38,374 bases of DNA from positions 1 to 38,374 of the IMG/VR virus record IMGVR_UViG_3300045988_093617; one strand, given 5' to 3'. Positions 1 to 38,374 of this stretch are shown here, piece by piece. Position 1 is the stretch's first letter. Each line of letters opens with the position of its first letter. A program made the translations under genes and the position numbers. Origin of the DNA: a virus. The notes beneath the pieces are model-generated. The model saw nothing but the letters and a program-made list of their open reading frames with translations. It was not told the origin of the DNA and did not search any database.

Positions 1-123
1 ACAAGAAATTGAGTGAATTTGACAAAATTCGAGCAATGTTTTAAATTTTTGACCAATTTTTGACCAAAAAAAATAAAACCGCTGATTTCAACGATTTGAA
101 AGCTTTATTATTATATCCAAGCT
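1..123. repeat. Terminal duplication copy 1 (identical to 38252-38374); circular-closure overlap
   Basis: Read directly: acaagaaattgagtgaatttgac...tatatccaagct occurs at both ends. It includes the last 41 coding nt plus the stop of the integrase ORF, so it is not an att core. Confidence 0.9.
46..67 (+). repeat. 2 x 11-bp tandem repeat TTTTTGACCAA (candidate integrase arm-type sites)
   Basis: Perfect tandem copies at 46-56 and 57-67, immediately after the int stop. Confidence 0.45.
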
Positions 124-22939: not shown

Positions 22940-23708
22940 TCAGTATGTCCTCAAATAGCTTTCTTTTATTTTGCCCAATGGATTTTCTAAGAGGTGTAAC
23001 TGCTACTTCAAATGGTTGGCACATCTCTGCAATTCTATCAAAGGTCCTTGCGACTCCATCTTGACCAGTCAGTCTTTGCTCCAATGTCTTCAAGTCCAAG
23101 TTTGTAGTTACTATTAAAGGCTTCTCTGCTCTATATCTGAAATCTATAATTTCATAAAGCTTAGCCTTTGCCCAAGAGTTGACCTCTTCTGCTCCTAAAT
23201 CATCTATGATTAAAAGTTCCGCATCTTGTAGTGTTCTTAAAAAAGTATCTGTTCCCTCTTGTCCGAAGCTTGACAGCTCTCTTAACCTTTGTAAGATTCT
23301 TGATGAAGTAGTTGCTATAACTGACACTCCTTTATCTAACAAATGATTTGCTATGCAAAAGCTTAGATAACTCTTACCAGTACCAGGTGCACCATAGATC
23401 AGTAGGCCTATATTCTCTTCTCGCATACGATTAAACTTAGTAGCATACTTCAAAGCCAAGTTTTTATATTTTGAATTTTCTTTTGTTATTTTAAAATTTT
23501 CAAAGGTGCAGCTTTCAAATCTCTTATCCATCAAAGAGTTAATCTTTAATCTTTTAAGTCTTTCCATCTTTTCTCTTTCTCTGTCTTCTTGTAGGAGTCT
23601 TTCTCTTTCTTTGTCTTCTTCTTCGCTTAATACTCTTACTCTAAATGCCTGACCTAAGACATATATTGTCTTAAAGGTCGAGTGGTTTGTACCAATCGTA
23701 TTTGTCAT
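22932..23708 (-). CDS. DnaC/IstB-like AAA+ helicase loader, 258 aa
   Basis: Walker A GAPGTGKS and Walker B LLIIDDLGAE. Confidence 0.8.
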   Translation of the reverse strand: MTNTIGTNHSTFKTIYVLGQAFRVRVLSEEEDKERERLLQEDREREKMERLKRLKINSLMDKRFESCTFENFKITKENSKYKNLALKYATKFNRMREENIGLLIYGAPGTGKSYLSFCIANHLLDKGVSVIATTSSRILQRLRELSSFGQEGTDTFLRTLQDAELLIIDDLGAEEVNSWAKAKLYEIIDFRYRAEKPLIVTTNLDLKTLEQRLTGQDGVARTFDRIAEMCQPFEVAVTPLRKSIGQNKRKLFEDILND

Positions 23709-24393
23709 CTTTCACCTCTTCTTTCTTTTCGTAATCTTTATATTTATCTTCTGTGATTGAATTAAAAAACTTCTTACTGATTTTATTAAGGTCAATGTTC
23801 TCTTTTAACCAAGTGCTTTCGTTTATCTTTTCTGCAAGCAGTTTGATATTATCCGCTCCATAAGTTTTAATTAATTTTTTCACTGATGATTGAGAGATTT
23901 TTTTGTTGAGTGTCCGCTCTAATATATTTAATATATATATCTCATCATCATCATTATTATCATTATTAATCATTATTCTTTCATTATTGTTTATGTTCCT
24001 CAGTTGTTCCTCAGTTGTTCCTCGGTTGTTCTTCAGTTGTTCCTTTTGAGTATTATCATCTTGATAAAAGTTGTAATTTACAATGGTTATAGTGGTGTAT
24101 TTACCTTGTTCCTTTTTTGCGATTATCATTCCATCTTCTTCTAACAAATTTAAAAAGTTAGTTACTTTTTTTCTTGACCACTTCCATCTTTCGGCTAACT
24201 TATTTACGCTTGTAATTCGCTGACCTCTTTTGATTGTTTCAAGTTTGCCATTGATTAAAACTTTCTTATCCTCGTGGTTCACCATCAAAAGCAGGTCAAT
24301 CCATGCAGATCTTTTATCAAATTCTTCCTTATCGGTCCAAATCCAGTGATTAAATAAGCTTCTATGAATACTTATCCAGCCTTGACTTGCCAC
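23671..24393 (-). CDS. Replisome organiser / replication initiator (N-terminal winged-helix, DnaD-like C-terminus), 240 aa
   Basis: N-terminus WISIHRSLFNHWIW...RGQRITSVNKLAERWKWSRKKVTNFL is typical of phage replication proteins. It contains iterons and lies upstream of the DnaC-like gene. Confidence 0.6.
   Translation of the reverse strand: MASQGWISIHRSLFNHWIWTDKEEFDKRSAWIDLLLMVNHEDKKVLINGKLETIKRGQRITSVNKLAERWKWSRKKVTNFLNLLEEDGMIIAKKEQGKYTTITIVNYNFYQDDNTQKEQLKNNRGTTEEQLRNINNNERIMINNDNNDDDEIYILNILERTLNKKISQSSVKKLIKTYGADNIKLLAEKINESTWLKENIDLNKISKKFFNSITEDKYKDYEKKEEVKDDKYDWYKPLDL
23990..24044. repeat. Iteron array: about 4.6 x 11-bp CAGTTGTTCCT (putative origin)
   Basis: Units at 24001-11, 24012-22, 24023-33 (cggttgttctt) and 24034-44, plus a partial unit at 23990-24000. 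The adjacent AT-rich tract 23941-23989 carries repeated CATTATT. Confidence 0.55.
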
Positions 24394-28164: not shown

Positions 28165-28378
28165 TGTTTCCTCCAAATATTTCTGGATAAAATCTATCTC
28201 CATATTTTAAAATTCTTTCAATATCTTCTTCTTCATCATGTCCGTATCCTGTGCCTATATAAAATTTAATTTCGCTCTCTGTCTTGACTTTAACTATTCC
28301 AATTACAGGAATTTCAGCGGTGAAAGGTGTGTACCACCAAGCGTTTAAAACTTCACTCAATTTTAAGCTCCTTGTCAT
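28151..28378 (-). CDS. Hypothetical early protein, 75 aa
   Basis: ORF track. Overlaps both neighbours. Confidence 0.45.
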   Translation of the reverse strand: MTRSLKLSEVLNAWWYTPFTAEIPVIGIVKVKTESEIKFYIGTGYGHDEEEDIERILKYGDRFYPEIFGGNNENI

Positions 28379-30149
28379 TACTAACTATTAACCTTACTAA
28401 CTGTGTATCTGTCTTAATTAGCTCATTTACGCTTTCTGCGTTGTCTATAAATATCGGTACTTTTAAATTTAGTTTGTCTGATAGAGTATTAATCACATCA
28501 AGACCTGCGTTTATTTTTGCCGCATTATTTAAGTCGCTGTAAGGCACACCATCAAGTGTAACTTCGCAAGTTTCAGTAATTCCGCCGTTTATTTGATTTT
28601 CAAAAAGCTTAAATTTAACTAAATTAAAACTGTCATTTATCTTATCGCTTACAAGTTCTACATAAGTTTTTGTATATTCTTCACATAAATAGATGATTCT
28701 TTGTTGCTCTTCATAAGCCTTGGCAAGGTCTTTTTCTTGGCTTTCAAGTTCTTTAATTCTTTCGTCAATCTTATCGTCTTGACCTTTAAGTGAAAGCTCT
28801 CTATTGACTTCATCTAACTCTTTATTAAGCTCGTCTTTTTTCTTCAAAAGTTCTGTCTTGTCAGTTAATGAAAAGCTATTTAATCTTTCTTTGGTTTCTG
28901 CTATTTCCTGGTCAATTTCTTTAAGTCTTTCAGGCTCAGTTGGCAGGTCTTCTGTCTTATATTCCTTGACCACATAGATTACTATTTCGCATTCTTCAAT
29001 TTTTATCTTTAAATCTTTCGCTCTTTCTTCAATGCTTGCTAACTTCTCAGACTTTTTCTTATTAAAGTTGGCCATAGTTTTTTCAATTTGGTCAGGCAAT
29101 AAATCCTGGCCACATGTCGGACATTTAAAATTTCCTTGATATTGGCTTTGATGAACTTCTTGCCATTCTTTCCTAAGCTTTTCGATTGATTCTTTAAAGA
29201 CTTCTAATTTCTTTTTAGCTTCTTCTGCTTCTGCTTTTTCTCTTAATTCTGTCGCTTTAATTTCGTTATTTTTGTTTTTAACTTTTAAAAGGTCTTCCTG
29301 GAATTTTTCTGTTAGATCTGTTTTCTCTTTTTGTAGTGCAGTAATTTTCTCGGCGACTTCAGTCATTCCCTCAGCTGATTTTGAAACATCAGCAAGTTTC
29401 GTGTCTATTTCTTTAATTGCTGGCAGGATTCCTCTTTTTCTGAAATCTAAAGCACCAAAATCTATATCTTTAACCTTAGATTTGTTTAGTTCGTCAATTC
29501 TTGCTGGTATAGACTCAATGTCCTTATTAATTTTTTTGGCACTATCCTTAGCGATTTTCTTTAATTCATCTACTGTGTAAGTTTCAAGGTTCAATTCTTC
29601 TAAGTTCTTGTTCTTTGCAATTATGTCTTCAGGCTTTACTTCGTCTATTAGTCCTAAGATGACTTCACGTCTTTTGTTCTTGTCCAAGATTTGATTAAAG
29701 TACAAAGGATTTGAAAGTAGATTAAAGTTCTCTTCGTCAATGACTGTAGCCAGTCTATCTGTGTACTCTTTCTTCTTAATCGGCACTGAGTTGATGTAGT
29801 AGTCGGTAGTGTGACCTGTGAATTCTGCTTGTGTAGATCCTCTCTTCTTAGTCCAGATTTCTTTGTAGATTTTCTTCAAGGTGATTTCTTCATCATCAAA
29901 TTCCAGAGTACCCTCAACCATAGATTCTAAGTTGTGGATCTCTTGTCCGTTTTTGTCAAAAGGCTTGATTGAGAAGTCCTTGCGATTTAAACTGTCCTTA
30001 TCCCAAAGTAACCAGGAATAAGCGTCAAAGATTGTTGTCTTACCTACTGCATTATCGCCACTTATGTTAGTTGTGTCCTTAAATTCTATGGTTAAGTCCT
30101 TAATGCCCTTAAAATTTTGTAGTTTTAAATTTTTAATTTTTATTCGCAT
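28353..30149 (-). CDS. Rad50/SbcC/T4 gp46-like ABC ATPase with coiled coil and CxxC zinc hook, 598 aa
   Basis: N-terminal Walker A GDNAVGKTT, a long charged coiled coil with a central FKCPTCGQDL, and a C-terminal Walker B-like VPIFIDNAES. Confidence 0.7.
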   Translation of the reverse strand: MRIKIKNLKLQNFKGIKDLTIEFKDTTNISGDNAVGKTTIFDAYSWLLWDKDSLNRKDFSIKPFDKNGQEIHNLESMVEGTLEFDDEEITLKKIYKEIWTKKRGSTQAEFTGHTTDYYINSVPIKKKEYTDRLATVIDEENFNLLSNPLYFNQILDKNKRREVILGLIDEVKPEDIIAKNKNLEELNLETYTVDELKKIAKDSAKKINKDIESIPARIDELNKSKVKDIDFGALDFRKRGILPAIKEIDTKLADVSKSAEGMTEVAEKITALQKEKTDLTEKFQEDLLKVKNKNNEIKATELREKAEAEEAKKKLEVFKESIEKLRKEWQEVHQSQYQGNFKCPTCGQDLLPDQIEKTMANFNKKKSEKLASIEERAKDLKIKIEECEIVIYVVKEYKTEDLPTEPERLKEIDQEIAETKERLNSFSLTDKTELLKKKDELNKELDEVNRELSLKGQDDKIDERIKELESQEKDLAKAYEEQQRIIYLCEEYTKTYVELVSDKINDSFNLVKFKLFENQINGGITETCEVTLDGVPYSDLNNAAKINAGLDVINTLSDKLNLKVPIFIDNAESVNELIKTDTQLVRLIVSNDKELKIE

Positions 30150-30415
30150 GATAAACCTCCGTCAAATACATCTTTAAAGGCTTCTATATCTCTTAACATG
30201 ATTTCTGTGAGATAGTCGACAAATAAGTCTTTAGCATTTTCTCCGCTATAATAGCTTTTAGATATGATAGTTTTTAAAGAACTTTCTTTAATGCTTACAT
30301 TTAAAGTCATTCTTAAATCATCTTCAATTTTTCTTTTTTCTTCATAGCTTTGAGCGTCTTCGTATCTCTCAAAAAGTGTTCCATCTGACACTTTAAAACA
30401 TTCAATTTTTTTCAT
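30140..30415 (-). CDS. Hypothetical protein, 91 aa
   Basis: ORF track. SD GGAG lies 9 nt upstream. Overlaps both neighbours. Confidence 0.5.
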   Translation of the reverse strand: MKKIECFKVSDGTLFERYEDAQSYEEKRKIEDDLRMTLNVSIKESSLKTIISKSYYSGENAKDLFVDYLTEIMLRDIEAFKDVFDGGLSCE

Positions 30416-30944
30416 TTTTTATTACTCCTTCAATAATTTCATCTAAAATGCCATTTCTACATTTTTCTAAATCTTCTATTTGTTTTTTAATGATTTTCTC
30501 TTGTTCCTGTAATTCGTATCTATAACTTTTCAACACATATACTACTTTTCTTTGTCTTTCTAAATCTGGCACTTTAATCTCTAAATTTAAAAAGGCTTTT
30601 TCATTCAATTCTGTAATCAAAGCTGGTATTTTAAGTTGCTTAATCAAATATTCCTCATTTTTAAGCCACTCATAAAGATAGTCTTCTAAAATCGCTCGAT
30701 TTTTAACCTCAACTATAAAACTTGCTTCAGTTACGAAGTGTTTAAACTCTCTCTTATAGACTTTGCCAACTGTGCCTTTTCTCGTGATGGTTATTCTGCC
30801 GTCATTGTTCCAGGTTTCAGAGTAGCCTGTTTCTTTTTCGCCAGCTCCAAAAATCGGATATTTTTCATTTTCTTTTGATTCAGTTCTTTTGCCTTTTTTT
30901 AAAATAATTAAATCTCTGAGTTTAAAAGATTGAAATTTGTTCAT
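30402..30944 (-). CDS. Half-size Type I-like specificity (HsdS-like) subunit, 180 aa (start at Met6 of track ORF)
   Basis: SD GGAGGTG precedes ATG 30944. It has one TRD-like region (YPIFGAGEKETGYSE...ITRKGTVGKVY) plus one conserved helical region (VPDLERQRKVVYVLKSYRYELQEQEKIIKKQIEDLEK). Confidence 0.65.
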   Translation of the reverse strand: MNKFQSFKLRDLIILKKGKRTESKENEKYPIFGAGEKETGYSETWNNDGRITITRKGTVGKVYKREFKHFVTEASFIVEVKNRAILEDYLYEWLKNEEYLIKQLKIPALITELNEKAFLNLEIKVPDLERQRKVVYVLKSYRYELQEQEKIIKKQIEDLEKCRNGILDEIIEGVIKNEKN

Positions 30945-31785
30945 TTTCTTCACCTCCACAGGTTAAAGGCTTGGCTTCTTCTTCAATGAATTTATCTAAA
31001 GCTCGCATAGATTTTAATATCTTAATGTTATTGATTTTAATTTCAGCTTCTAGCTTCTTGATGTCGATTTCTTCCTTTTCCTCGACTTCTCTCGCTACTT
31101 CCCAGTGTTCAAAATCAATTTCAAAAGTTTCTTTAACTTTCACGGTTTGAGTTCTACAATCATAAATTTCGCTCGTATAGGTGTTTTCTGCTTTTTCTTT
31201 GTCAATAACTATAAAAACAACTGGAATAGTTGTATCTTCAAAGCCGTTTTCAATAAAATTCAATTCTAAAAGTCTATTTCCAACAAGTTCTCTCATCTTC
31301 TTCTCTGTCTTTCTATAGGCTATTCCAGGAAACAAGATATAAAATCCGTATCTTTTCGTGAAATTCAAACTTTTTAATAAAAATATATCGTCTAAAACTC
31401 CTGACTTTTTCCAAGAGAATTCAGATTGTATCGCTTCAATCTCTTCTTTTGTCTGATCTTTAAATTTCAGACTAAAAGGCGGATTAATTAAACTCGCATC
31501 ATATTCTTTGTACTCGTCAAATAGAAAGAAACTCATTACGTGAACTTCTGCATTTGGAAAGTTTTCAAGGAGCGTATCTGCTGCTTGTTTTTGAATTTCA
31601 ACGGCTATTATCTTTTCTGCGTTGATAAACTGTTCAAGTTGGCCACTTCCTGCCGCTCCGTCAAAAATCGTCTTTAAATCTGGTACGTATTTTTTAACTT
31701 TTTCAGATGCATATTTTCTCAAAGCTTGACCTGTGATATATTCAGCGTGTTGATCGGCTATCTGCCTATTATTAAATTCTTTCAT
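30922..31785 (-). CDS. N6-adenine DNA methyltransferase, short HsdM-like (gamma class), 287 aa
   Basis: Motif I FDGAAGSGQL is followed by motif IV NPPF. Confidence 0.7.
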   Translation of the reverse strand: MKEFNNRQIADQHAEYITGQALRKYASEKVKKYVPDLKTIFDGAAGSGQLEQFINAEKIIAVEIQKQAADTLLENFPNAEVHVMSFFLFDEYKEYDASLINPPFSLKFKDQTKEEIEAIQSEFSWKKSGVLDDIFLLKSLNFTKRYGFYILFPGIAYRKTEKKMRELVGNRLLELNFIENGFEDTTIPVVFIVIDKEKAENTYTSEIYDCRTQTVKVKETFEIDFEHWEVAREVEEKEEIDIKKLEAEIKINNIKILKSMRALDKFIEEEAKPLTCGGEENEQISIF

Positions 31786-34702: not shown

Positions 34703-34906
34703 TCATACTTCTAAAATTTTTCTGATTTGCTCCAACCTTTCAGCATTTGTCCTATTGCCTTTAGCGATGTCATACACATAACCAGTGCTAATTCCCATTT
34801 CATCAGCTAACTTTTGGTATGTGTAGCCTTTTCTTTTCATAGCAACTGCAATTTTTTCTTCTAATGATAAATTTTTGAGCGTCAAACGATCACCACCTTT
34901 AAACAT
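34703..34906 (-). CDS. Cro-like XRE-family HTH regulator, 67 aa (or 60 aa from TTG 34885)
   Basis: HTH YTYQKLADEMGISTGYVYDIAKGNR. ATG 34906 has no SD. The strong SD GGTGGTGA (34897-34890) sits 4 nt before the in-frame TTG at 34885. Confidence 0.7.
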   Translation of the reverse strand: MFKGGDRLTLKNLSLEEKIAVAMKRKGYTYQKLADEMGISTGYVYDIAKGNRTNAERLEQIRKILEV

Positions 34907-34927: not shown

Positions 34928-34956
34928 TTGACTCCCATTGTAAAATATGCTAATAT
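34928..34956 (+). promoter_or_regulatory. Rightward promoter candidate (towards repressor operon)
   Basis: TTGACT (34928-33), 17 nt containing TGc, then TAATAT (34951-56). It is flanked by the inverted repeat TATTTTACA (34912-20) / TGTAAAATA (34939-47). Confidence 0.45.
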
Positions 34957-35054: not shown

Positions 35055-35083
35055 AGTATAATGGAATATTTTCCATTTGTCAA
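35055..35083 (-). promoter_or_regulatory. Leftward (lytic/cro) promoter candidate
   Basis: Minus strand reads TTGACA (35083-78), 17 nt, TATACT (35060-55). The spacer is the operator-like repeat GGAATATTTTCC. Confidence 0.5.
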
Positions 35084-35110
35084 TAATATTTTTTGGAATA
35101 TTGTCCATTT
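35063..35110. promoter_or_regulatory. Two operator-like direct repeats GGAATATT(T/G)TCCATTT
   Basis: Copies at 35063-78 and 35095-110 match 15/16 and lie 32 bp centre to centre. Each contains the partial palindrome GGAA-N4-TTCC / GGAA-N4-GTCC. Confidence 0.5.
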
Positions 35111-35137
35111 ATTTAGTGCCATTTAATGAGGTGCTAT

Positions 35138-35449
35138 ATGGATATATTAGAAAGAGTCAAGGACTTATGCTACAAGCAGGGTATGACTGTAGCTGAATTA
35201 GAAAGAAAAGCCGATTTAGGAAATGGTAGTGTTAGAAGATGGTGTACATCAATACCAGCAGCCGATAAACTCCAAAGAGCGGCAATAACTTTAGGAACAA
35301 CAATGGATTATTTGCTAACAGGAAATGAACCAAAAGAAAATTCTGAAACTCTGTTACTTGCAAGAGAAGCTAACTCACTTACCAAAGAACAGTTAAACGC
35401 AGTAAAAAGTATAATTGAAGAGTTTAAAAGAAATAATAACATAAGGTGA
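35138..35449 (+). CDS. CI-like XRE-family repressor (ImmR-like, no S24 peptidase domain), 103 aa (start at Met5 of track ORF)
   Basis: RBS GAGGTG lies 6 nt before ATG 35138. HTH MTVAELERKADLGNGSVRRW. Confidence 0.75.
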   Translation: MDILERVKDLCYKQGMTVAELERKADLGNGSVRRWCTSIPAADKLQRAAITLGTTMDYLLTGNEPKENSETLLLAREANSLTKEQLNAVKSIIEEFKRNNNIR

Positions 35450-36021
35450 TGCTATTGGATTGGAAAAGTAAAGATTATTTATACTATAAAATAATGCAGT
35501 TTTGTAATGACAATAAAGTTGAAGCTAATATAGATCTTGAAAAATTATGTGAAGAAAAAAACTGGTTTTTAATTCCTTATCCTAAAGAAAAATATCAAAT
35601 ATTTAAATCAATATCTAAAGATGGATTTACTGTCAAAGATGGAAATAATTTTTTTATAAATTATAATCCTGAATTAAAAGAAAAGTGCTTTGGAAGGTAT
35701 AGATTCACCCTTGCTCATGAAATAGGACACATATATTTGTATCATCACATCTATGTGGACTATTATGTTTTGATGCACTGTGATGATAAGAAAACTATAT
35801 GGGAACAACAAGCAGATATATTTGCTCAAAACTTGCTTATGCCTATTAAGTACAAAGATTATTACAAAAAGTATAACAATATGGATCTACAAAACATATT
35901 TGGTGTAAGTAACGAAATGGTAAATACCAGATTAAGTAAATTATATCAGGATGAGCTTTTTTCAAGAAAATTGATTACAAAACTAAGAAACAAAACTTTA
36001 GTTTATGGAGATAAGAAATGA
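35446..36021 (+). CDS. ImmA/IrrE-family zinc metallopeptidase, about 190 aa
   Basis: HEXXH motif in RFTLAHEIGHIYLYHH. The start (GTG 35446 or ATG 35449) overlaps the repressor stop. Confidence 0.75.
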   Translation: MMLLDWKSKDYLYYKIMQFCNDNKVEANIDLEKLCEEKNWFLIPYPKEKYQIFKSISKDGFTVKDGNNFFINYNPELKEKCFGRYRFTLAHEIGHIYLYHHIYVDYYVLMHCDDKKTIWEQQADIFAQNLLMPIKYKDYYKKYNNMDLQNIFGVSNEMVNTRLSKLYQDELFSRKLITKLRNKTLVYGDKK

Positions 36022-37154
36022 AAATACTAAGAAAAATTGTTGGAACATTATTTATTTTTGCGGCTATTGGCGGCTTTATTGCAAAAGACTTTTTACCTGC
36101 TTTAATTATTTTGTCAGTTGGAATACTCCTAATAAAAGGTATTTCAAAAAACAATAAAATTAATAATGTTGATAAAGAAACTAATATCGCTAATGAGCCA
36201 AAAAATATAGAAGACGACAAAAACAATAAACAGACAAACAAAGTAATTGCTAAAAAAATTAATTTTGATAGTGATAAAATTAATAATAAAAACTTGAAAG
36301 ATTTTACAATAATTGATTTTGAAACTACAGGTATATCCGTATTTAGTAATGAAATTATAGAAATAGGAGCAATCAAGGTAAGAGATTTAGAAGTTATAGA
36401 TACTTTTGATACACTTTGCAATCCTCTTATGACCATAGAAAATACACACATTCACGGAATAAAAAACGATAAAGTTATGGAATATAAATACCCAATGGTT
36501 TACATGAATGATTTATTAACATTTATTGGTGACGATACTATATTTGCATATAATGCCCCTTTCGACATAGAGTTTTTAAACTCTTACTTGCCAAGTAACA
36601 TAAATAATAAGATTGTAGACGTGTTAGCTTTAGCACGTGCTAGAGAAAATAGAGAATCATATAGACTGGTAGATGTTAGAGAAGACCTAAACATTAATAC
36701 CGAATGCCATAGATCCATAGGAGATTGTGAAGCTACGCTTGAATACTATAAATATTTGCTTTTTAAATATGATATCAAAAGGTTGCAATATACTCATGTA
36801 GATTCAGAACTAACATCTCTAAGATCTAAGCGTAACGCTAAATATGCAAATTATATTTTAGAAAATCACATACCTGATTCTTCTACATTTGATGAACAAA
36901 GTTATTTTTATAATAAAAATGTTTGTTTTTCTGGAGATTTCGATAATTTTTCAAAAGCAGATGCTTATTTAAAGATTCTTGATATTGGAGGACACGTTCA
37001 ACAAAACGTCACTTTGAAAACAGATATTTTAGTAATAGGAACTTATAAACAAAAAACTTCAAAAGAAAAAAAGGCTGATGAGTATAATCTAAGAACTAAT
37101 ATCAAAATAGAAAAACTACATGAAGATGATTTTCTACAACTATTAAACGAGTAA
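36018..37154 (+). CDS. Membrane-anchored DEDDh (DnaQ-like) 3'-5' exonuclease with C-terminal BRCT-like domain, 378 aa
   Basis: Two N-terminal hydrophobic helices and an N/K-rich linker. Exo I IIDFETTG, Exo II AYNAPFDIEFL, Exo III HRSIGDCEAT. BRCT-like NVCFSGDF..ILDIGGHVQQNVTLKTDILVIG. ATGA overlap with the ImmA-like gene. Confidence 0.7.
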   Translation: MKILRKIVGTLFIFAAIGGFIAKDFLPALIILSVGILLIKGISKNNKINNVDKETNIANEPKNIEDDKNNKQTNKVIAKKINFDSDKINNKNLKDFTIIDFETTGISVFSNEIIEIGAIKVRDLEVIDTFDTLCNPLMTIENTHIHGIKNDKVMEYKYPMVYMNDLLTFIGDDTIFAYNAPFDIEFLNSYLPSNINNKIVDVLALARARENRESYRLVDVREDLNINTECHRSIGDCEATLEYYKYLLFKYDIKRLQYTHVDSELTSLRSKRNAKYANYILENHIPDSSTFDEQSYFYNKNVCFSGDFDNFSKADAYLKILDIGGHVQQNVTLKTDILVIGTYKQKTSKEKKADEYNLRTNIKIEKLHEDDFLQLLNE

Positions 37155-37160
37155 AATAAA

Positions 37161-37246
37161 TTATGATACAAAAAAAAGAGCCTGCACGAATGCAAGCTCT
37201 CCAAAACACAAAGTGTGTTTTCTTCCCAAAATTAATTGTATCATAA
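37161..37246. repeat. 11-bp perfect inverted repeat TTATGATACAA / TTGTATCATAA bracketing two hairpins between the exonuclease gene and int
   Basis: Arms at 37161-71 and 37236-46. Inside are AGAGCCTGCA-cgaa-TGCAAGCTCT (37177-37200) and AACACA-aa-GTGTGTT plus a T-run (37204-37224). Confidence 0.5.
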
Positions 37247-37275: not shown

Positions 37276-38295
37276 ATGAATACAACTATTAGACAAAGAA
37301 AAAATGGCAAATACCAAGCTATTATTTCTTACAAGGTTAATGGCGCCTGGAAGCAAAAATCTAAAGGCGGCTTTGACCGAGTTTCGGATGCCAAAAAATG
37401 GGCAAAGGATAAGTCTTTTGACCTTGTCGAGATTGAGAGACAAGGTATAGTAGATAGTGACATGACAGTCGGTGAGTTATTTGATCTCTACATTGAAGAC
37501 CTTGAACTTCAAGGTAAGCCGAGAAATACGATCAGAGCCTATACCGATACCAAGAAATTCTATGAAAGAATTTGTTCGACCCAATTAAAAAAACTAAAGG
37601 CTCATGACGTTAAAAGGCATATTTTCTATAAGCAAAAAGAGACCAACTTTAGCTACCAAGATTTTTTCAAAAGACTTAAAAGCGTGTTAAATTTCGCCTG
37701 CAGAGAACTTAAAATCATACCATCAAATCCAATCTGTGATTTAAAAATAAAATTTGAAAGTACCGACAAAAGAATTAAATTCATCACCAAAGAAATTTAT
37801 CAAAAAATCTTAGATTCTATTGATGACGATCTTGAAAAGCTATACGTTCAAGTCTTATATGAGACTGGTATGCGTAGAAGTGAAGCCTTAGGAATTACAG
37901 TTTTTGATGTTAAAGACTGCAAAATTTCAGTAAATAAACAATATGACGAAACTTTGAAAAAATTCGCATCTTTAAAGACTGCAAATTCTAAAAGATTTAT
38001 ACCTATCAAAAAAGAACTTGAAAAAAAGCTACTTTCTCAAATTCCAAACATTGAAGGCAGGCTCTTCTATGGATTCGATTCAAATACTATATATAACAAA
38101 TATATCAGGCCTTTCAATACCTCAATTCACTGCTTTCGACATACTTTCGCTACAAATCTTGTAAGCTCTGGCATAGATCTTACTATAGCTGCTCAGATTA
38201 TTGGCGATGATATTAAGACAGTCTTAAGCACCTACACTCAAGTCAATGAAGACAAGAAATTGAGTGAATTTGACAAAATTCGAGCAATGTTTTAA
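37276..38295 (+). CDS. int: Tyrosine integrase, 339 aa
   Basis: ETGMRRSEALGI (Arg), HCFRHTFATNL (H-x-x-R) and LSTYTQV (Tyr). N-terminal arm-binding-type domain RQRKNGKYQAIISYKVNGAWKQKSKGGF. RBS AAAGGAG. Confidence 0.9.
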   Translation: MNTTIRQRKNGKYQAIISYKVNGAWKQKSKGGFDRVSDAKKWAKDKSFDLVEIERQGIVDSDMTVGELFDLYIEDLELQGKPRNTIRAYTDTKKFYERICSTQLKKLKAHDVKRHIFYKQKETNFSYQDFFKRLKSVLNFACRELKIIPSNPICDLKIKFESTDKRIKFITKEIYQKILDSIDDDLEKLYVQVLYETGMRRSEALGITVFDVKDCKISVNKQYDETLKKFASLKTANSKRFIPIKKELEKKLLSQIPNIEGRLFYGFDSNTIYNKYIRPFNTSIHCFRHTFATNLVSSGIDLTIAAQIIGDDIKTVLSTYTQVNEDKKLSEFDKIRAMF

Positions 38296-38374
38296 ATTTT
38301 TGACCAATTTTTGACCAAAAAAAATAAAACCGCTGATTTCAACGATTTGAAAGCTTTATTATTATATCCAAGCT
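38252..38374. repeat. Terminal duplication copy 2 (identical to 1-123)
   Basis: Exact 123-bp match to the window start (offset 38251). Confidence 0.9.

Follow-up and report, generated by a model that had tools for sequence, protein, structure and literature searches.

Closest described systems

Among described systems, SNIPE comes closest to the mechanism first proposed for the gene considered here. SNIPE is a membrane-bound GIY-YIG nuclease that cuts phage DNA during injection and tells self from non-self by location (PMC13190303). The gene in question lies near the right end of a stretch of viral DNA of 38,374 nucleotides (IMG/VR record IMGVR_UViG_3300045988_093617, positions 1 to 38,374; hereafter “the window”) and encodes a 378-amino acid protein, Exo-BRCT, in which a DnaQ-type DEDDh exonuclease is followed by a BRCT domain. 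The initial annotation of the window had read it as a membrane-tethered nuclease, co-translated with a phage repressor and a candidate for defence or exclusion at the place where phage DNA enters the cell. The host is an uncultured Peptoniphilus species, and the phage protein is a variant, probably membrane-anchored, of a prophage gene family that is widespread, catalogued and functionally uncharacterised. The best-supported reading is that Exo-BRCT would be a lysogen-expressed DNA 3′–5′ exonuclease directed against incoming DNA, a reading held tentatively and with slightly less than even confidence.

SNIPE is a single-protein nuclease held at the inner membrane by N-terminal transmembrane (TM) segments, 10–20 residues long in its homologues, and has a variable N-terminal adaptor (PMC13190303); Exo-BRCT would resemble it in these respects. 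The two proteins are unrelated, as SNIPE combines a GIY-YIG endonuclease with DUF4041, whereas Exo-BRCT combines a predicted DEDDh 3′–5′ exonuclease with BRCT. Membership of the SNIPE family was rejected, with neither a GIY-YIG nor a DUF4041 match to Exo-BRCT in Pfam or PADLOC.

Superinfection exclusion proteins of the Sie type, from temperate phages of Gram-positive bacteria, offer a second comparison. The experimentally characterised example is Ltp, an exclusion lipoprotein whose gene lies in the lysogeny module and is transcribed while the phage is a prophage (PMC3952083). Exo-BRCT would share with these proteins its place in the lysogeny module, a membrane association and an action against incoming phage DNA. 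The difference lies in the mode of action: Ltp is extracellular and blocks injection without enzymatic activity, whereas Exo-BRCT is a predicted cytoplasm-facing nuclease (PMC3952083).

Two groups of DEDDh enzymes are comparable at the level of the catalytic domain. TREX1 shares the DEDDh fold and is among the Foldseek matches of Exo-BRCT, but it is eukaryotic, lacks a BRCT domain and is only 17–18% identical. This mammalian enzyme is membrane-anchored, through a C-terminal tail at the endoplasmic reticulum, and clears unwanted cytosolic DNA. A defence-associated 3′–5′ exonuclease, said to be Cap18, was reportedly described by Liang and colleagues in 2022. The TONDO/ISG20 homologues likewise join a DEDDh exonuclease to variable auxiliary domains and occur in prophages and defence neighbourhoods, and their defence is nuclease-dependent in some cases (PMC13344964). 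TONDOs, which were selected as homologues of ISG20, have RNA as their substrate, at the 3′ ends in RNA phages (PMC13344964). Neither they nor, as far as is known, the exonuclease of Liang and colleagues has a BRCT domain or a position in a repressor operon. TONDOs belong to a different DEDD subfamily and were rejected as the family of Exo-BRCT, as were the NrnC-like diDNases on the same ground (PMC11706625).

The initial annotation recognised the architecture in no named defence system. Among PADLOC candidates this does not hold, as both ends of PDC-S48 match Exo-BRCT. The PADLOC candidates (PDCs) are 145 in number and were proposed by guilt-by-embedding (Payne et al., bioRxiv 10.1101/2024.01.29.577857). 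The exonuclease matches the CRISPR-associated DEDDh model best (E 1e-31), followed by PDC-S48 (E 6e-25). Over the 411 positions of the PDC-S48 model, the exonuclease corresponds to 4–167 and the BRCT region, searched alone, to 334–405; since the BRCT region alone finds the end of the model, the exonuclease-to-BRCT layout appears to be common to both. Some 170 central positions are unmatched, and the 86 bits were obtained against a model without a curated threshold. PDC-S48 also differs in origin, as it came from genes that lie inside BREX, DISARM and type I restriction-modification loci and not inside prophage lysogeny modules. A CRISPR-associated Cas2-DEDDh was rejected as an identity for Exo-BRCT: Pfam finds no Cas2 domain, and the proximity to cas9 in lysogens is a result of integration.

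The exonuclease-BRCT protein

The gene and the parts of its product are as follows.

36018..37154 (+): Exo-BRCT gene, 378 amino acids; ATG overlapping the ImmA stop (ATGA), GGAG 8 nt upstream
36036..36134 (+): hydrophobic helical hairpin, probable membrane anchor; helix 1 residues 7–22, helix 2 residues 25–39 (hydropathy, AlphaFold2, conservation)
36141..36302 (+): N/K-rich disordered tether, residues 42–95; predicted local distance difference test (pLDDT) below 50 over 42–80 (with composition and alignment gaps)
36303..36767 (+): DnaQ/PolC-type DEDDh 3′–5′ exonuclease domain, residues 96–250 (Pfam RNase_T, PDB sequence matches, Foldseek)
36315-36323 (D100 and E102), 36564-36566 (D183), 36708-36710 (H231), 36723-36725 (D236), all (+): catalytic codons, from alignments
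36897..37151 (+): LigA-type BRCT domain, residues 294–378 (Pfam, NCBIfam LigA, PHROG NAD-ligase families, PDB, pLDDT 91–97)

Re-reading the sequence returned the same open reading frame (ORF), on the same strand and of the same length, together with the motifs and the two hydrophobic segments that had been claimed for it. The motifs lie at residues 100–105 (DFETTG), 179–186 (NAPFDIEF) and 231–238 (HRSIGDCE), and the stretch NVCFSGDF...GGHVQQNVTLKTDILVIG occupies residues 300–341. Both proposed domains were recovered by profile searches: Pfam RNase_T (PF00929) matches residues 98–243 (E 2e-21; 77.7 bits, curated threshold 24) and Pfam BRCT (PF00533) matches residues 294–359 (E 3.9e-7; 30.6 bits, curated threshold 21.3).

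All three DEDDh motifs are present, namely the D-x-E of Exo I, the D of Exo II and the H-x4-D of Exo III. The residues D100, E102, D183, H231 and D236 show little or no variation across alignments of 22 and 39 sequences, which include homologues down to 23–33% identity. Judged by these residues, the exonuclease appears to be catalytically intact, with a predicted metal-dependent 3′–5′ activity. The nearest PDB sequences are the PolC exonuclease 2p1j (E 1.4e-17), DnaQ 8h18 and Cas2-DEDDh. Foldseek returned the exonuclease domain of Staphylococcus aureus DinG, PolC, Escherichia coli epsilon, ExoX and TREX1/2, with target TM-scores (template modelling) of 0.70–0.82 to the PolC exonuclease, DnaQ, epsilon and ExoX, in keeping with an RNase H-like alpha/beta fold of the DnaQ type. 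DNA is the predicted substrate because these nearest relatives in sequence and fold are DNA 3′–5′ exonucleases.

The C-terminal domain resembles the BRCT of NAD-dependent ligases. It matches positions 569–645 of NCBIfam LigA (TIGR00575, E 3e-9) and the PHROG NAD-ligase families, and its sole sequence relatives in the PDB are the BRCT domains of E. coli LigA (2owo and 5tt5). The AlphaFold2 model of the whole protein, built from the 39-sequence alignment, has a mean pLDDT of 85.8. It places N-terminal helices at residues 2–21 and 25–40, disorder at 42–80, the exonuclease at 96–250 (pLDDT 90–98), a connecting helix at 266–283 and the BRCT domain at 300–377. Within the latter (pLDDT 91–97), strands at 301–305, 326–328, 337–340 and 365–368 are interspersed with helices.

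Two other identities were considered for the enzyme. The JGI label of Pol III epsilon, or a housekeeping DnaQ, was rejected on NCBIfam equivalog scores far under their cut-offs (TIGR01406, dnaQ_proteo, 52.5 against 222.7; PRK05711, 47.7 against 196; PRK06195, 66.7 against 373; PRK06807, 103.4 against 335). An exonuclease partner of RecT-type recombination was rejected for its wrong polarity and for the position of the gene in the repressor operon; in related prophages, RecT and SSB are encoded in the early operon and not in the repressor operon.

The N-terminal hairpin and linker

The two hydrophobic segments, IVGTLFIFAAIGGFIA (residues 7–22) and FLPALIILSVGILLI (residues 25–39), are separated by K23 and D24 alone. 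Their summed Hessa insertion energies, calculated for 15-mers, are -1.3 and -1.9 kcal/mol, compared with +7.0 kcal/mol for the best stretch elsewhere in the protein, and they are its sole membrane-compatible stretches. The Kyte–Doolittle maximum over 19 residues is 2.23, and AlphaFold2 models the region as a helical hairpin (pLDDT 81–90). Both flanks are basic (MKILRK before the hairpin, KGISKNNK after it), so that the positive-inside rule predicts an N-in/C-in topology, which would leave the enzyme in the cytoplasm. Membrane insertion of the hairpin is probable, with a predicted topology; the helices are short, at 15–16 residues, and were judged by hydropathy and the model.

Within the clade of closer relatives (at least 42% identity), the hydrophobic N-terminal pattern is kept in 41 of 43 clusters while the sequence drifts. 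The linker that follows is rich in asparagine and lysine, as first described, with 14 N and 12 K in its 54 residues (42–95). Its length varies, and clade members range from 338 to 424 amino acids in total. A signal peptide or lipoprotein was rejected: a lipobox cysteine is missing, positions -3/-1 lack small residues, and the first hydrophobic helix leads directly into a second. An internal start that bypasses the hydrophobic region was also rejected: the first internal methionine is residue 137, the TTG at codon 93, the one candidate start, has no ribosome-binding site, and the pattern is conserved in the 41 clusters.

The anchor is a feature of few members of the wider family. A census took in 84 distinct Exo-BRCT ORFs, drawn from the species-representative genomes and from IMG/VR; 76 have no N-terminal extension or a short one, three are hydrophobic at the N-terminus and one carries a Cys-rich domain there. 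Accessory modules thus vary between a TM hairpin, a Cys-rich domain and a C-terminal extension of 170–200 amino acids, the last present in 12 of the 84; variation of this kind is also seen in the defence nucleases SNIPE and TONDO. The proposed action at the entry site is conceivable for the anchored clade at most; with a hydrophobic N-terminus in 3 of 84 ORFs, it cannot be the general mechanism of the family. Membrane-anchored DnaQ-like exonucleases without BRCT recur on conjugative megaplasmids of Enterococcus faecium and as fusions to a TM2 domain. The E. faecium megaplasmid enzyme has two N-terminal hydrophobic segments (cluster representative P0057) and aligns with residues 1–247 of Exo-BRCT.

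The Cys-rich module has a conserved motif, CCSxYxECxxxxxCxHxD...C.Y[KR]..L..G.IF, which P0044 carries at residues ~140–190 as an N-terminal fusion to Exo-BRCT. In several phages of Clostridia and Ruminococcus, the same motif forms a separate ORF of 150–190 amino acids that adjoins the exonuclease gene. No Pfam family was found for these partner ORFs. The module may be a partner or adaptor in place of the TM hairpin. The Cys-rich ORFs beside the exonuclease gene are located as follows.

L017, 2171-2641: Cys-rich ORF
L018, 5409-5951: Cys-rich ORF
L021, 6815-7384: Cys-rich ORF
L022, 11-247: Cys-rich ORF
L036, 6887-7396: Cys-rich ORF

A widespread prophage gene family

The combination of exonuclease and BRCT is a catalogued one, so the initial view of an unrecognised architecture does not stand in this respect either. 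It corresponds to PHROG 192, “DNA polymerase exonuclease subunit” (E 5.3e-37, residues 49–377 to profile positions 60–365 of 397), and tblastn finds Exo-BRCT in at least 119 of 50,697 GenBank phage records. Carriers of the PHROG 192 type include the S. aureus phages phi12, phiN315, phiNM3, phi47 and the PVL-carrying phi2958PVL, the pneumococcal IPP prophages, and Streptococcus suis; further carriers are phages of Clostridium, Paenibacillus, Bacillus and Listeria. Where a listed phage record begins at int, the gene mostly lies 1–4 kb from the integrase end. The family genes bear contradictory annotations, including exonuclease, DinG helicase, DNA ligase, Pol III epsilon and exoribonuclease.

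The PHROG 192 phage proteins have the same exonuclease-BRCT layout as the Peptoniphilus protein, with 25–31% identity over residues 95–378, and their genes likewise lie directly after the repressor, or after a repressor–ImmA pair, and before int. They differ in being shorter (~300–310 amino acids) and in having neither the N-terminal hydrophobic hairpin nor the linker.

On a single contig of Desemzia sp. RIT 804 (L030, L031, L032; 788–947 kb) there are three identical 12.9-kb Exo-BRCT loci, ~73 kb apart, to be explained by tandem duplication of a large segment or else by faulty assembly.

The repressor operon

The gene belongs to a compact lysogeny module, whose features are listed here.

34703..34906 (-): Cro-like helix-turn-helix (HTH) gene, 67 amino acids, divergent from the repressor operon (Pfam HTH_3, weak; PADLOC capH-like HTH, E 6e-7)
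34928-34956 (+): rightward promoter-like site of the switch region, TTGACT-17-TAATAT with TG (consensus scan)
35077-35104 (+): rightward promoter-like site of the switch region, TTGTCA-16-TATTGT (consensus scan)
35083-35055 (-): leftward promoter-like site, TTGACA-17-TATACT (consensus scan)
35126..35449 (+): XRE-family repressor, 107 amino acids; gene callers place the start at 35138, giving 103 amino acids
35446..36021 (+): ImmA/IrrE-type M78 metallopeptidase, 191 amino acids, with a HEIGH zinc motif at residues 91–95 (35716-35730)
37177..37222 (no strand assigned): two adjacent hairpins in the exo–int spacer, the first at 37177-37200 and the second at 37203-37222 (terminator scan, RNA fold)
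37276..38295 (+): tyrosine integrase, 339 amino acids, co-oriented with the operon (Pfam Phage_integrase, E 1.5e-14; Arm-DNA-bind_4)

The repressor matches Pfam HTH_3 (E 9e-5), the PHROG 8 transcriptional regulator (E 4e-13), PADLOC capH (E 1e-7) and an RstR-like NCBIfam family (E 6e-7), while the peptidase matches Pfam Peptidase_M78 (E 6e-11), PADLOC capP (E 3e-17) and the PHROG 87 metallo-protease. By its layout of an XRE HTH gene, a co-oriented M78 gene with an HExxH motif and a divergent cro-like gene, this is an ImmR/ImmA-type module of the ICEBs1/phi105 kind. The single rightward operon described initially is borne out by its overlapping starts and stops. The ImmA start, either GTG at 35446 or ATG at 35449, shares bases with the repressor stop TGA (35447-35449), and the ATG of exo overlaps the ImmA stop (ATGA at 36018), with GGAG 8 nt upstream. 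On this arrangement, exo is predicted to be translationally coupled to the repressor and ImmA genes. The promoter-like sites of the switch region come from a consensus scan alone, and their count is not above shuffle expectation.

The Cro-like HTH gene, a Bro/ANT gene and the early genes lie opposite the repressor operon, which is therefore the phage’s own switch. An immune operon regulated by CapH/CapP was rejected as an interpretation, as the pair sits at that switch and the exonuclease gene lies within the repressor’s own transcript and is not under the control of the repressor, which is not the CapH/CapP arrangement.

The operon had been described as ending in hairpins before int. Two hairpins are indeed present, in a spacer whose folding has a z of -5.7 relative to shuffles, but the stronger is a leftward terminator and the second is only weakly rightward. 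The first is assigned to leftward transcription because its T-run is on the minus strand only, with an A-run preceding it. Rightward read-through from exo into int is possible.

The slot between repressor and integrase

The interval between repressor and integrase had been regarded as a slot for cargo, and the context of homologues agrees with this. Among the best 80 IMG/VR loci, eight of which are too short downstream to judge, 52 have a same-strand recombinase downstream and 45 a repressor-like gene upstream. The median gap from exo to the downstream recombinase in the 52 is 428 bp. All four further clade members that were examined also lie between a repressor and a recombinase.

The genes on either side are not constant. 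An XRE+M78 pair upstream is combined with a tyrosine integrase downstream in the window and in L009, and with a serine recombinase in other members of the anchored clade; still others have an HTH-S24 repressor upstream and a tyrosine integrase downstream. A plain XRE repressor precedes the fusion with the Cys-rich domain. In IPP44 the order is repressor, ImmA-like gene, exonuclease and int; in phi12 it is cI, exonuclease and, further on, int, and cI is also found in the pneumococcal IPP phages. In Peptoniphilus phages, a different repressor/ImmA/cro set can accompany identical exo and int genes (L004, L006). The tie to ImmA specifically that the initial annotation had drawn is thus not general, as HTH-S24 repressors, plain XRE repressors and a plasmid S24 peptidase also precede such exonucleases. 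Given the variety of repressors and recombinases around exo, its stable partner is the repressor, and neither ImmA nor a particular recombinase.

The association is also seen on plasmids. In E. faecium pNB2354_1 (L097 5421-6891) and Clostridium kluyveri pCKL555A (L098 4908-6233), a DnaQ-like exonuclease without BRCT directly follows an S24 peptidase or HTH regulators, and no integrase is present. The linkage of repressor and exonuclease consequently extends beyond phages.

In ~24 non-redundant species-representative genomes, a tyrosine integrase lies within two to three ORFs of the homologue in 11. The remaining copies mostly adjoin DUF3427/ResIII, AbiEii, AIPR, Schlafen-type helicase, NERD, Vsr, HicAB or relaxase genes, and one adjoins rpsB and tsf. 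About a third of the chromosomal copies adjoin defence-type genes, which supports the initial reading of a candidate defence factor. Across GenBank phages, species-representative genomes and IMG/VR, the distribution of Exo-BRCT is overwhelmingly on mobile elements.

Exchange of cargo was examined by comparing a 3-kb query from IPP44, running from the repressor through int, with streptococcal phages. Among phages with flanks more than 90% identical, 10 records retain the exonuclease and in others the middle differs. The alternative cargo is a lipoprotein (OlisA1), a HIRAN-domain protein (phiARI0995b) or a DUF4429 protein. The slot loci of the streptococcal phages are as follows.

L184, 1066-1491: slot locus
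L185, 1060-1974: slot locus
L007, 3989-4912: slot locus

HIRAN domains bind DNA 3′ ends, and two of the alternative cargoes of the slot may therefore address the same DNA feature. The OlisA1 lipoprotein fills the slot of exo, and Ltp is likewise a lipoprotein encoded in a streptococcal lysogeny module. Because cargo is swapped between near-identical flanks, exo is best regarded as accessory cargo, presumably expressed in the lysogen, and not as a component of the switch. The slot and neighbourhood data much improve the contextual support for a role in defence, which is a reasonable hypothesis.

Proposed role and alternative explanations

A defence or exclusion role is our best guess for Exo-BRCT, and its mechanism could be as follows. 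The protein would be made in the lysogen from the repressor operon as swappable prophage cargo, with no part in the lysogeny switch or in integration. In the Peptoniphilus clade, the helical hairpin and a flexible linker of ~55 residues would hold it at the cytoplasmic side of the membrane. Its target would be the DNA of superinfecting phages, and possibly other mobile DNA, against which it would form a single-gene barrier. LigA-type BRCT modules bind DNA ends and nicks, and by analogy the BRCT domain of Exo-BRCT might detect free ends, or nicks in a linear genome that has just entered and annealed. Resection of the 3′ strand by the exonuclease would follow and would keep the incoming genome from being ligated, circularised or replicated. 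There is precedent in type III Druantia, which is reported to block the circularisation of phage DNA, as well as in SNIPE, the DEDDh TONDO proteins and TREX1. Self-protection would follow from the lack of such ends in the integrated prophage and the chromosome, and in this clade also from confinement to the membrane.

Several points weigh against this account. The literature searched reports no phenotype for any member of the family, and PDC-S48 is explicitly an untested candidate (Payne et al., bioRxiv 10.1101/2024.01.29.577857). About 90% of the family has no membrane anchor, and the two hydrophobic helices of Exo-BRCT itself are short, at 15–16 residues. A processive-looking DnaQ-type exonuclease has no obvious means of discriminating self from non-self; it would also find substrates in chromosomal nicks and at replication ends. 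The linkage to SOS-type repressors, found even on plasmids that lack an integrase, suits a regulatory role equally. The context survey is also biased, given that recombinases and repressors were called by seed-based phmmer and that IMG/VR holds viral contigs only.

Should the family prove to serve in defence, its contribution would be a simple mechanism within one protein, based on an end- or nick-directed 3′–5′ exonuclease. The host range of phages in therapy and prophage-mediated competition would be affected in S. aureus, Streptococcus pneumoniae, S. suis, clostridia and gut anaerobes. The anchored variant would then be a second and unrelated case, after SNIPE, of location-based immunity at the site of entry. 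A more far-reaching proposal, which is doubtful as a whole, is that the Exo-BRCT family constitutes a widespread and unrecognised single-gene prophage immunity of Gram-positive bacteria. Made from the repressor operon, it would use BRCT to find the ends of superinfecting linear DNA, or the nicks in annealed cos sites, and destroy that DNA by 3′–5′ resection, which would bar ligation and circularisation; the Peptoniphilus and Enterococcus clades would have gained the entry-site hairpin independently; and here it would replace the Cas9 immunity lost by integration. If this were true, the anchored enzymes would stand beside SNIPE as its DEDDh equivalent, and membrane-anchored TREX1 would have a parallel in bacteria.

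The position of exo directly downstream of, and co-oriented with, damage-responsive repressors (XRE+M78, HTH-S24 and the S24 peptidase of the E. faecium plasmid) could also be explained if the exonuclease tunes induction. It would adjust the single-stranded DNA (ssDNA) or 3′ ends that signal cleavage of the repressor, whether RecA-dependent (S24) or of the ImmA/CapP type, and thereby set the induction threshold. This could operate in two directions, stabilising lysogeny by degrading ssDNA or sensitising the prophage by resecting ends. CapP-type M78 peptidases are activated by ssDNA (PMC13228613), and the pair upstream of exo matches capP and capH; the HIRAN protein found as alternative cargo in the same slot fits as well. 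Against such a role, exo is dispensable, in that few phages have the gene and near-identical switches carry a lipoprotein or a DUF4429 protein instead. Some homologues also sit in defence-type neighbourhoods without a repressor, and a membrane tether would be odd for the control of a signal borne by the nucleoid. We consider this explanation, the main rival, unlikely. If it held, a nuclease input would be added to the ImmA- and RecA-type lysogeny switches, and with either outcome a function would be given to a gene that is now annotated contradictorily as helicase, ligase, Pol III epsilon or exoribonuclease.

A further possibility is that the membrane-tethered enzyme degrades ssDNA that enters by competence or conjugation, shielding the prophage from replacement by recombination or from competing elements and not from phages. 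The anchor recurs independently in DnaQ-like exonucleases, both on the conjugative megaplasmids of E. faecium and in the TM2 fusions, and a 3′–5′ polarity would suit ssDNA with a free 3′ end. Such a role in anti-transformation, or against mobile DNA in general, is nonetheless quite unlikely, as most members of the family are soluble and none of the loci examined is linked to competence or transfer genes.

A contribution to host DNA repair is more improbable still. In that case, lysogenic conversion would supply an ExoX- or TREX-like helper for end-trimming or proofreading, which would raise the fitness of the lysogen under DNA damage. The fold and sequence are nearest to those of repair and proofreading exonucleases, BRCT occurs in the repair ligase LigA, and one homologue adjoins rpsB and tsf. 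These points are countered by the NCBIfam equivalog scores far under cut-off (as for dnaQ_proteo and PRK06195 above), by the predominance of mobile elements in the distribution and by the tether, which would be unexpected in a repair enzyme.

Lastly, a counter-defence role, in which the enzyme would trim CRISPR prespacers or degrade nucleotide messengers to complement the disruption of cas9, is highly improbable: the CRISPR-associated DEDDh model is the best PADLOC match, and insertions of the phage of the window and of its relatives lie within or next to CRISPR-cas loci, but the match reflects the general DnaQ fold (PolC and DnaQ score as well), no Cas2 domain is present, the family is widespread in hosts and phages without a CRISPR link, and for such genes early lytic expression is the rule, not expression from a repressor operon.

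Integration into cas9

Bases 1–123 of the window are 100% identical to 38252–38374 over their 123 nt, which makes the window a closed circular phage genome of 38,251 bp, with attP directly downstream of int. The attachment core and the loci compared for integration into cas9 are these.

38368..38374, also 117-123 (-): attachment core AGCTTGG, crossover with host cas9 (attP/attR/attB comparison)
L001, 10345-10357: compared locus
L100, about 2195-2215: compared locus
L101, 6001-10095: compared locus

Comparison of the junctions places integration within the host cas9 coding sequence, at the 7-bp core AGCTTGG. An exact-pattern search for the host junction gave no match, and the host loci were found instead by a Cas9 protein search. 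On lysogen contigs, a convergent cas9 of only 1060 amino acids lies 67 bp past the integrase gene. A prophage-free metagenome-assembled genome (MAG) of the same species (99% identity) and Peptoniphilus duerdenii have the type II-A order of cas9, cas1, cas2, csn2 and CRISPR array, the arrays of these prophage-free relatives comprising 17–28 repeats of 36 nt. The uninterrupted cas9 encodes 1364 amino acids in P. duerdenii; the MAG copy is cut at the start of the contig, with ~300 codons beyond the junction.

Integration exchanges the last ~300 codons of cas9 for I-stop (isoleucine followed by a stop). The Cas9 of the lysogen thus loses the whole of the domain that interacts with the protospacer adjacent motif (Pfam Cas9_PI, residues 1094–1357), and its RuvC domain ends at model position 90 of 151. 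In addition, the 38-kb prophage separates cas9 from cas1-cas2-csn2 and the CRISPR array. To our knowledge, no case of phage integration into the cas9 coding sequence has been described. The Streptococcus pyogenes phage AP1.1 integrates into CRISPR repeats (Varble et al.), a known tactic that integration into cas9 would extend.

No close relatives of the window integrase were found in IMG/VR. Related phages of Peptoniphilaceae (L090 6252-9200; L091 6252-8140) encode the same anchored Exo-BRCT clade (P0018) together with a serine recombinase. They end 45–550 bp from the 3′ end of cas2, which is a type I-E Cas2-DEDDh gene in L090 and a type I-C cas2 in L091, and the phage ends lie where the leader and array would be expected. 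This suggests that the phage group repeatedly targets CRISPR-cas loci.

Other features of the window

The early region at 28353-31785 (-) encodes a 598-amino acid SMC/ABC-type ATPase with weak matches to LmuB, AriA, PtuA and Old-like proteins. The same region holds a 185-amino acid ORF that resembles a type I specificity subunit of half size and overlaps a gene for a 287-amino acid N6 methyltransferase-like protein; from these likenesses, the pair could be an orphan methylation module that evades restriction.

Near attP, a 99-nt direct repeat, 95% identical between its copies at 639-737 and 1239-1337, contains the palindrome TTTTAGTACATGTACTAAAA. The copies lie beside two small minus-strand ORFs, one overlapping the 3′ end of 685-897 and the other just upstream of 908-1225, and the repeat may be a duplicated regulatory element. 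A further repeat, at 23994-24048, consists of four overlapping 22-nt units at an 11-nt offset with the motif TGTTCCTCAGT, and lies within the minus-strand ORF 23671-24393.

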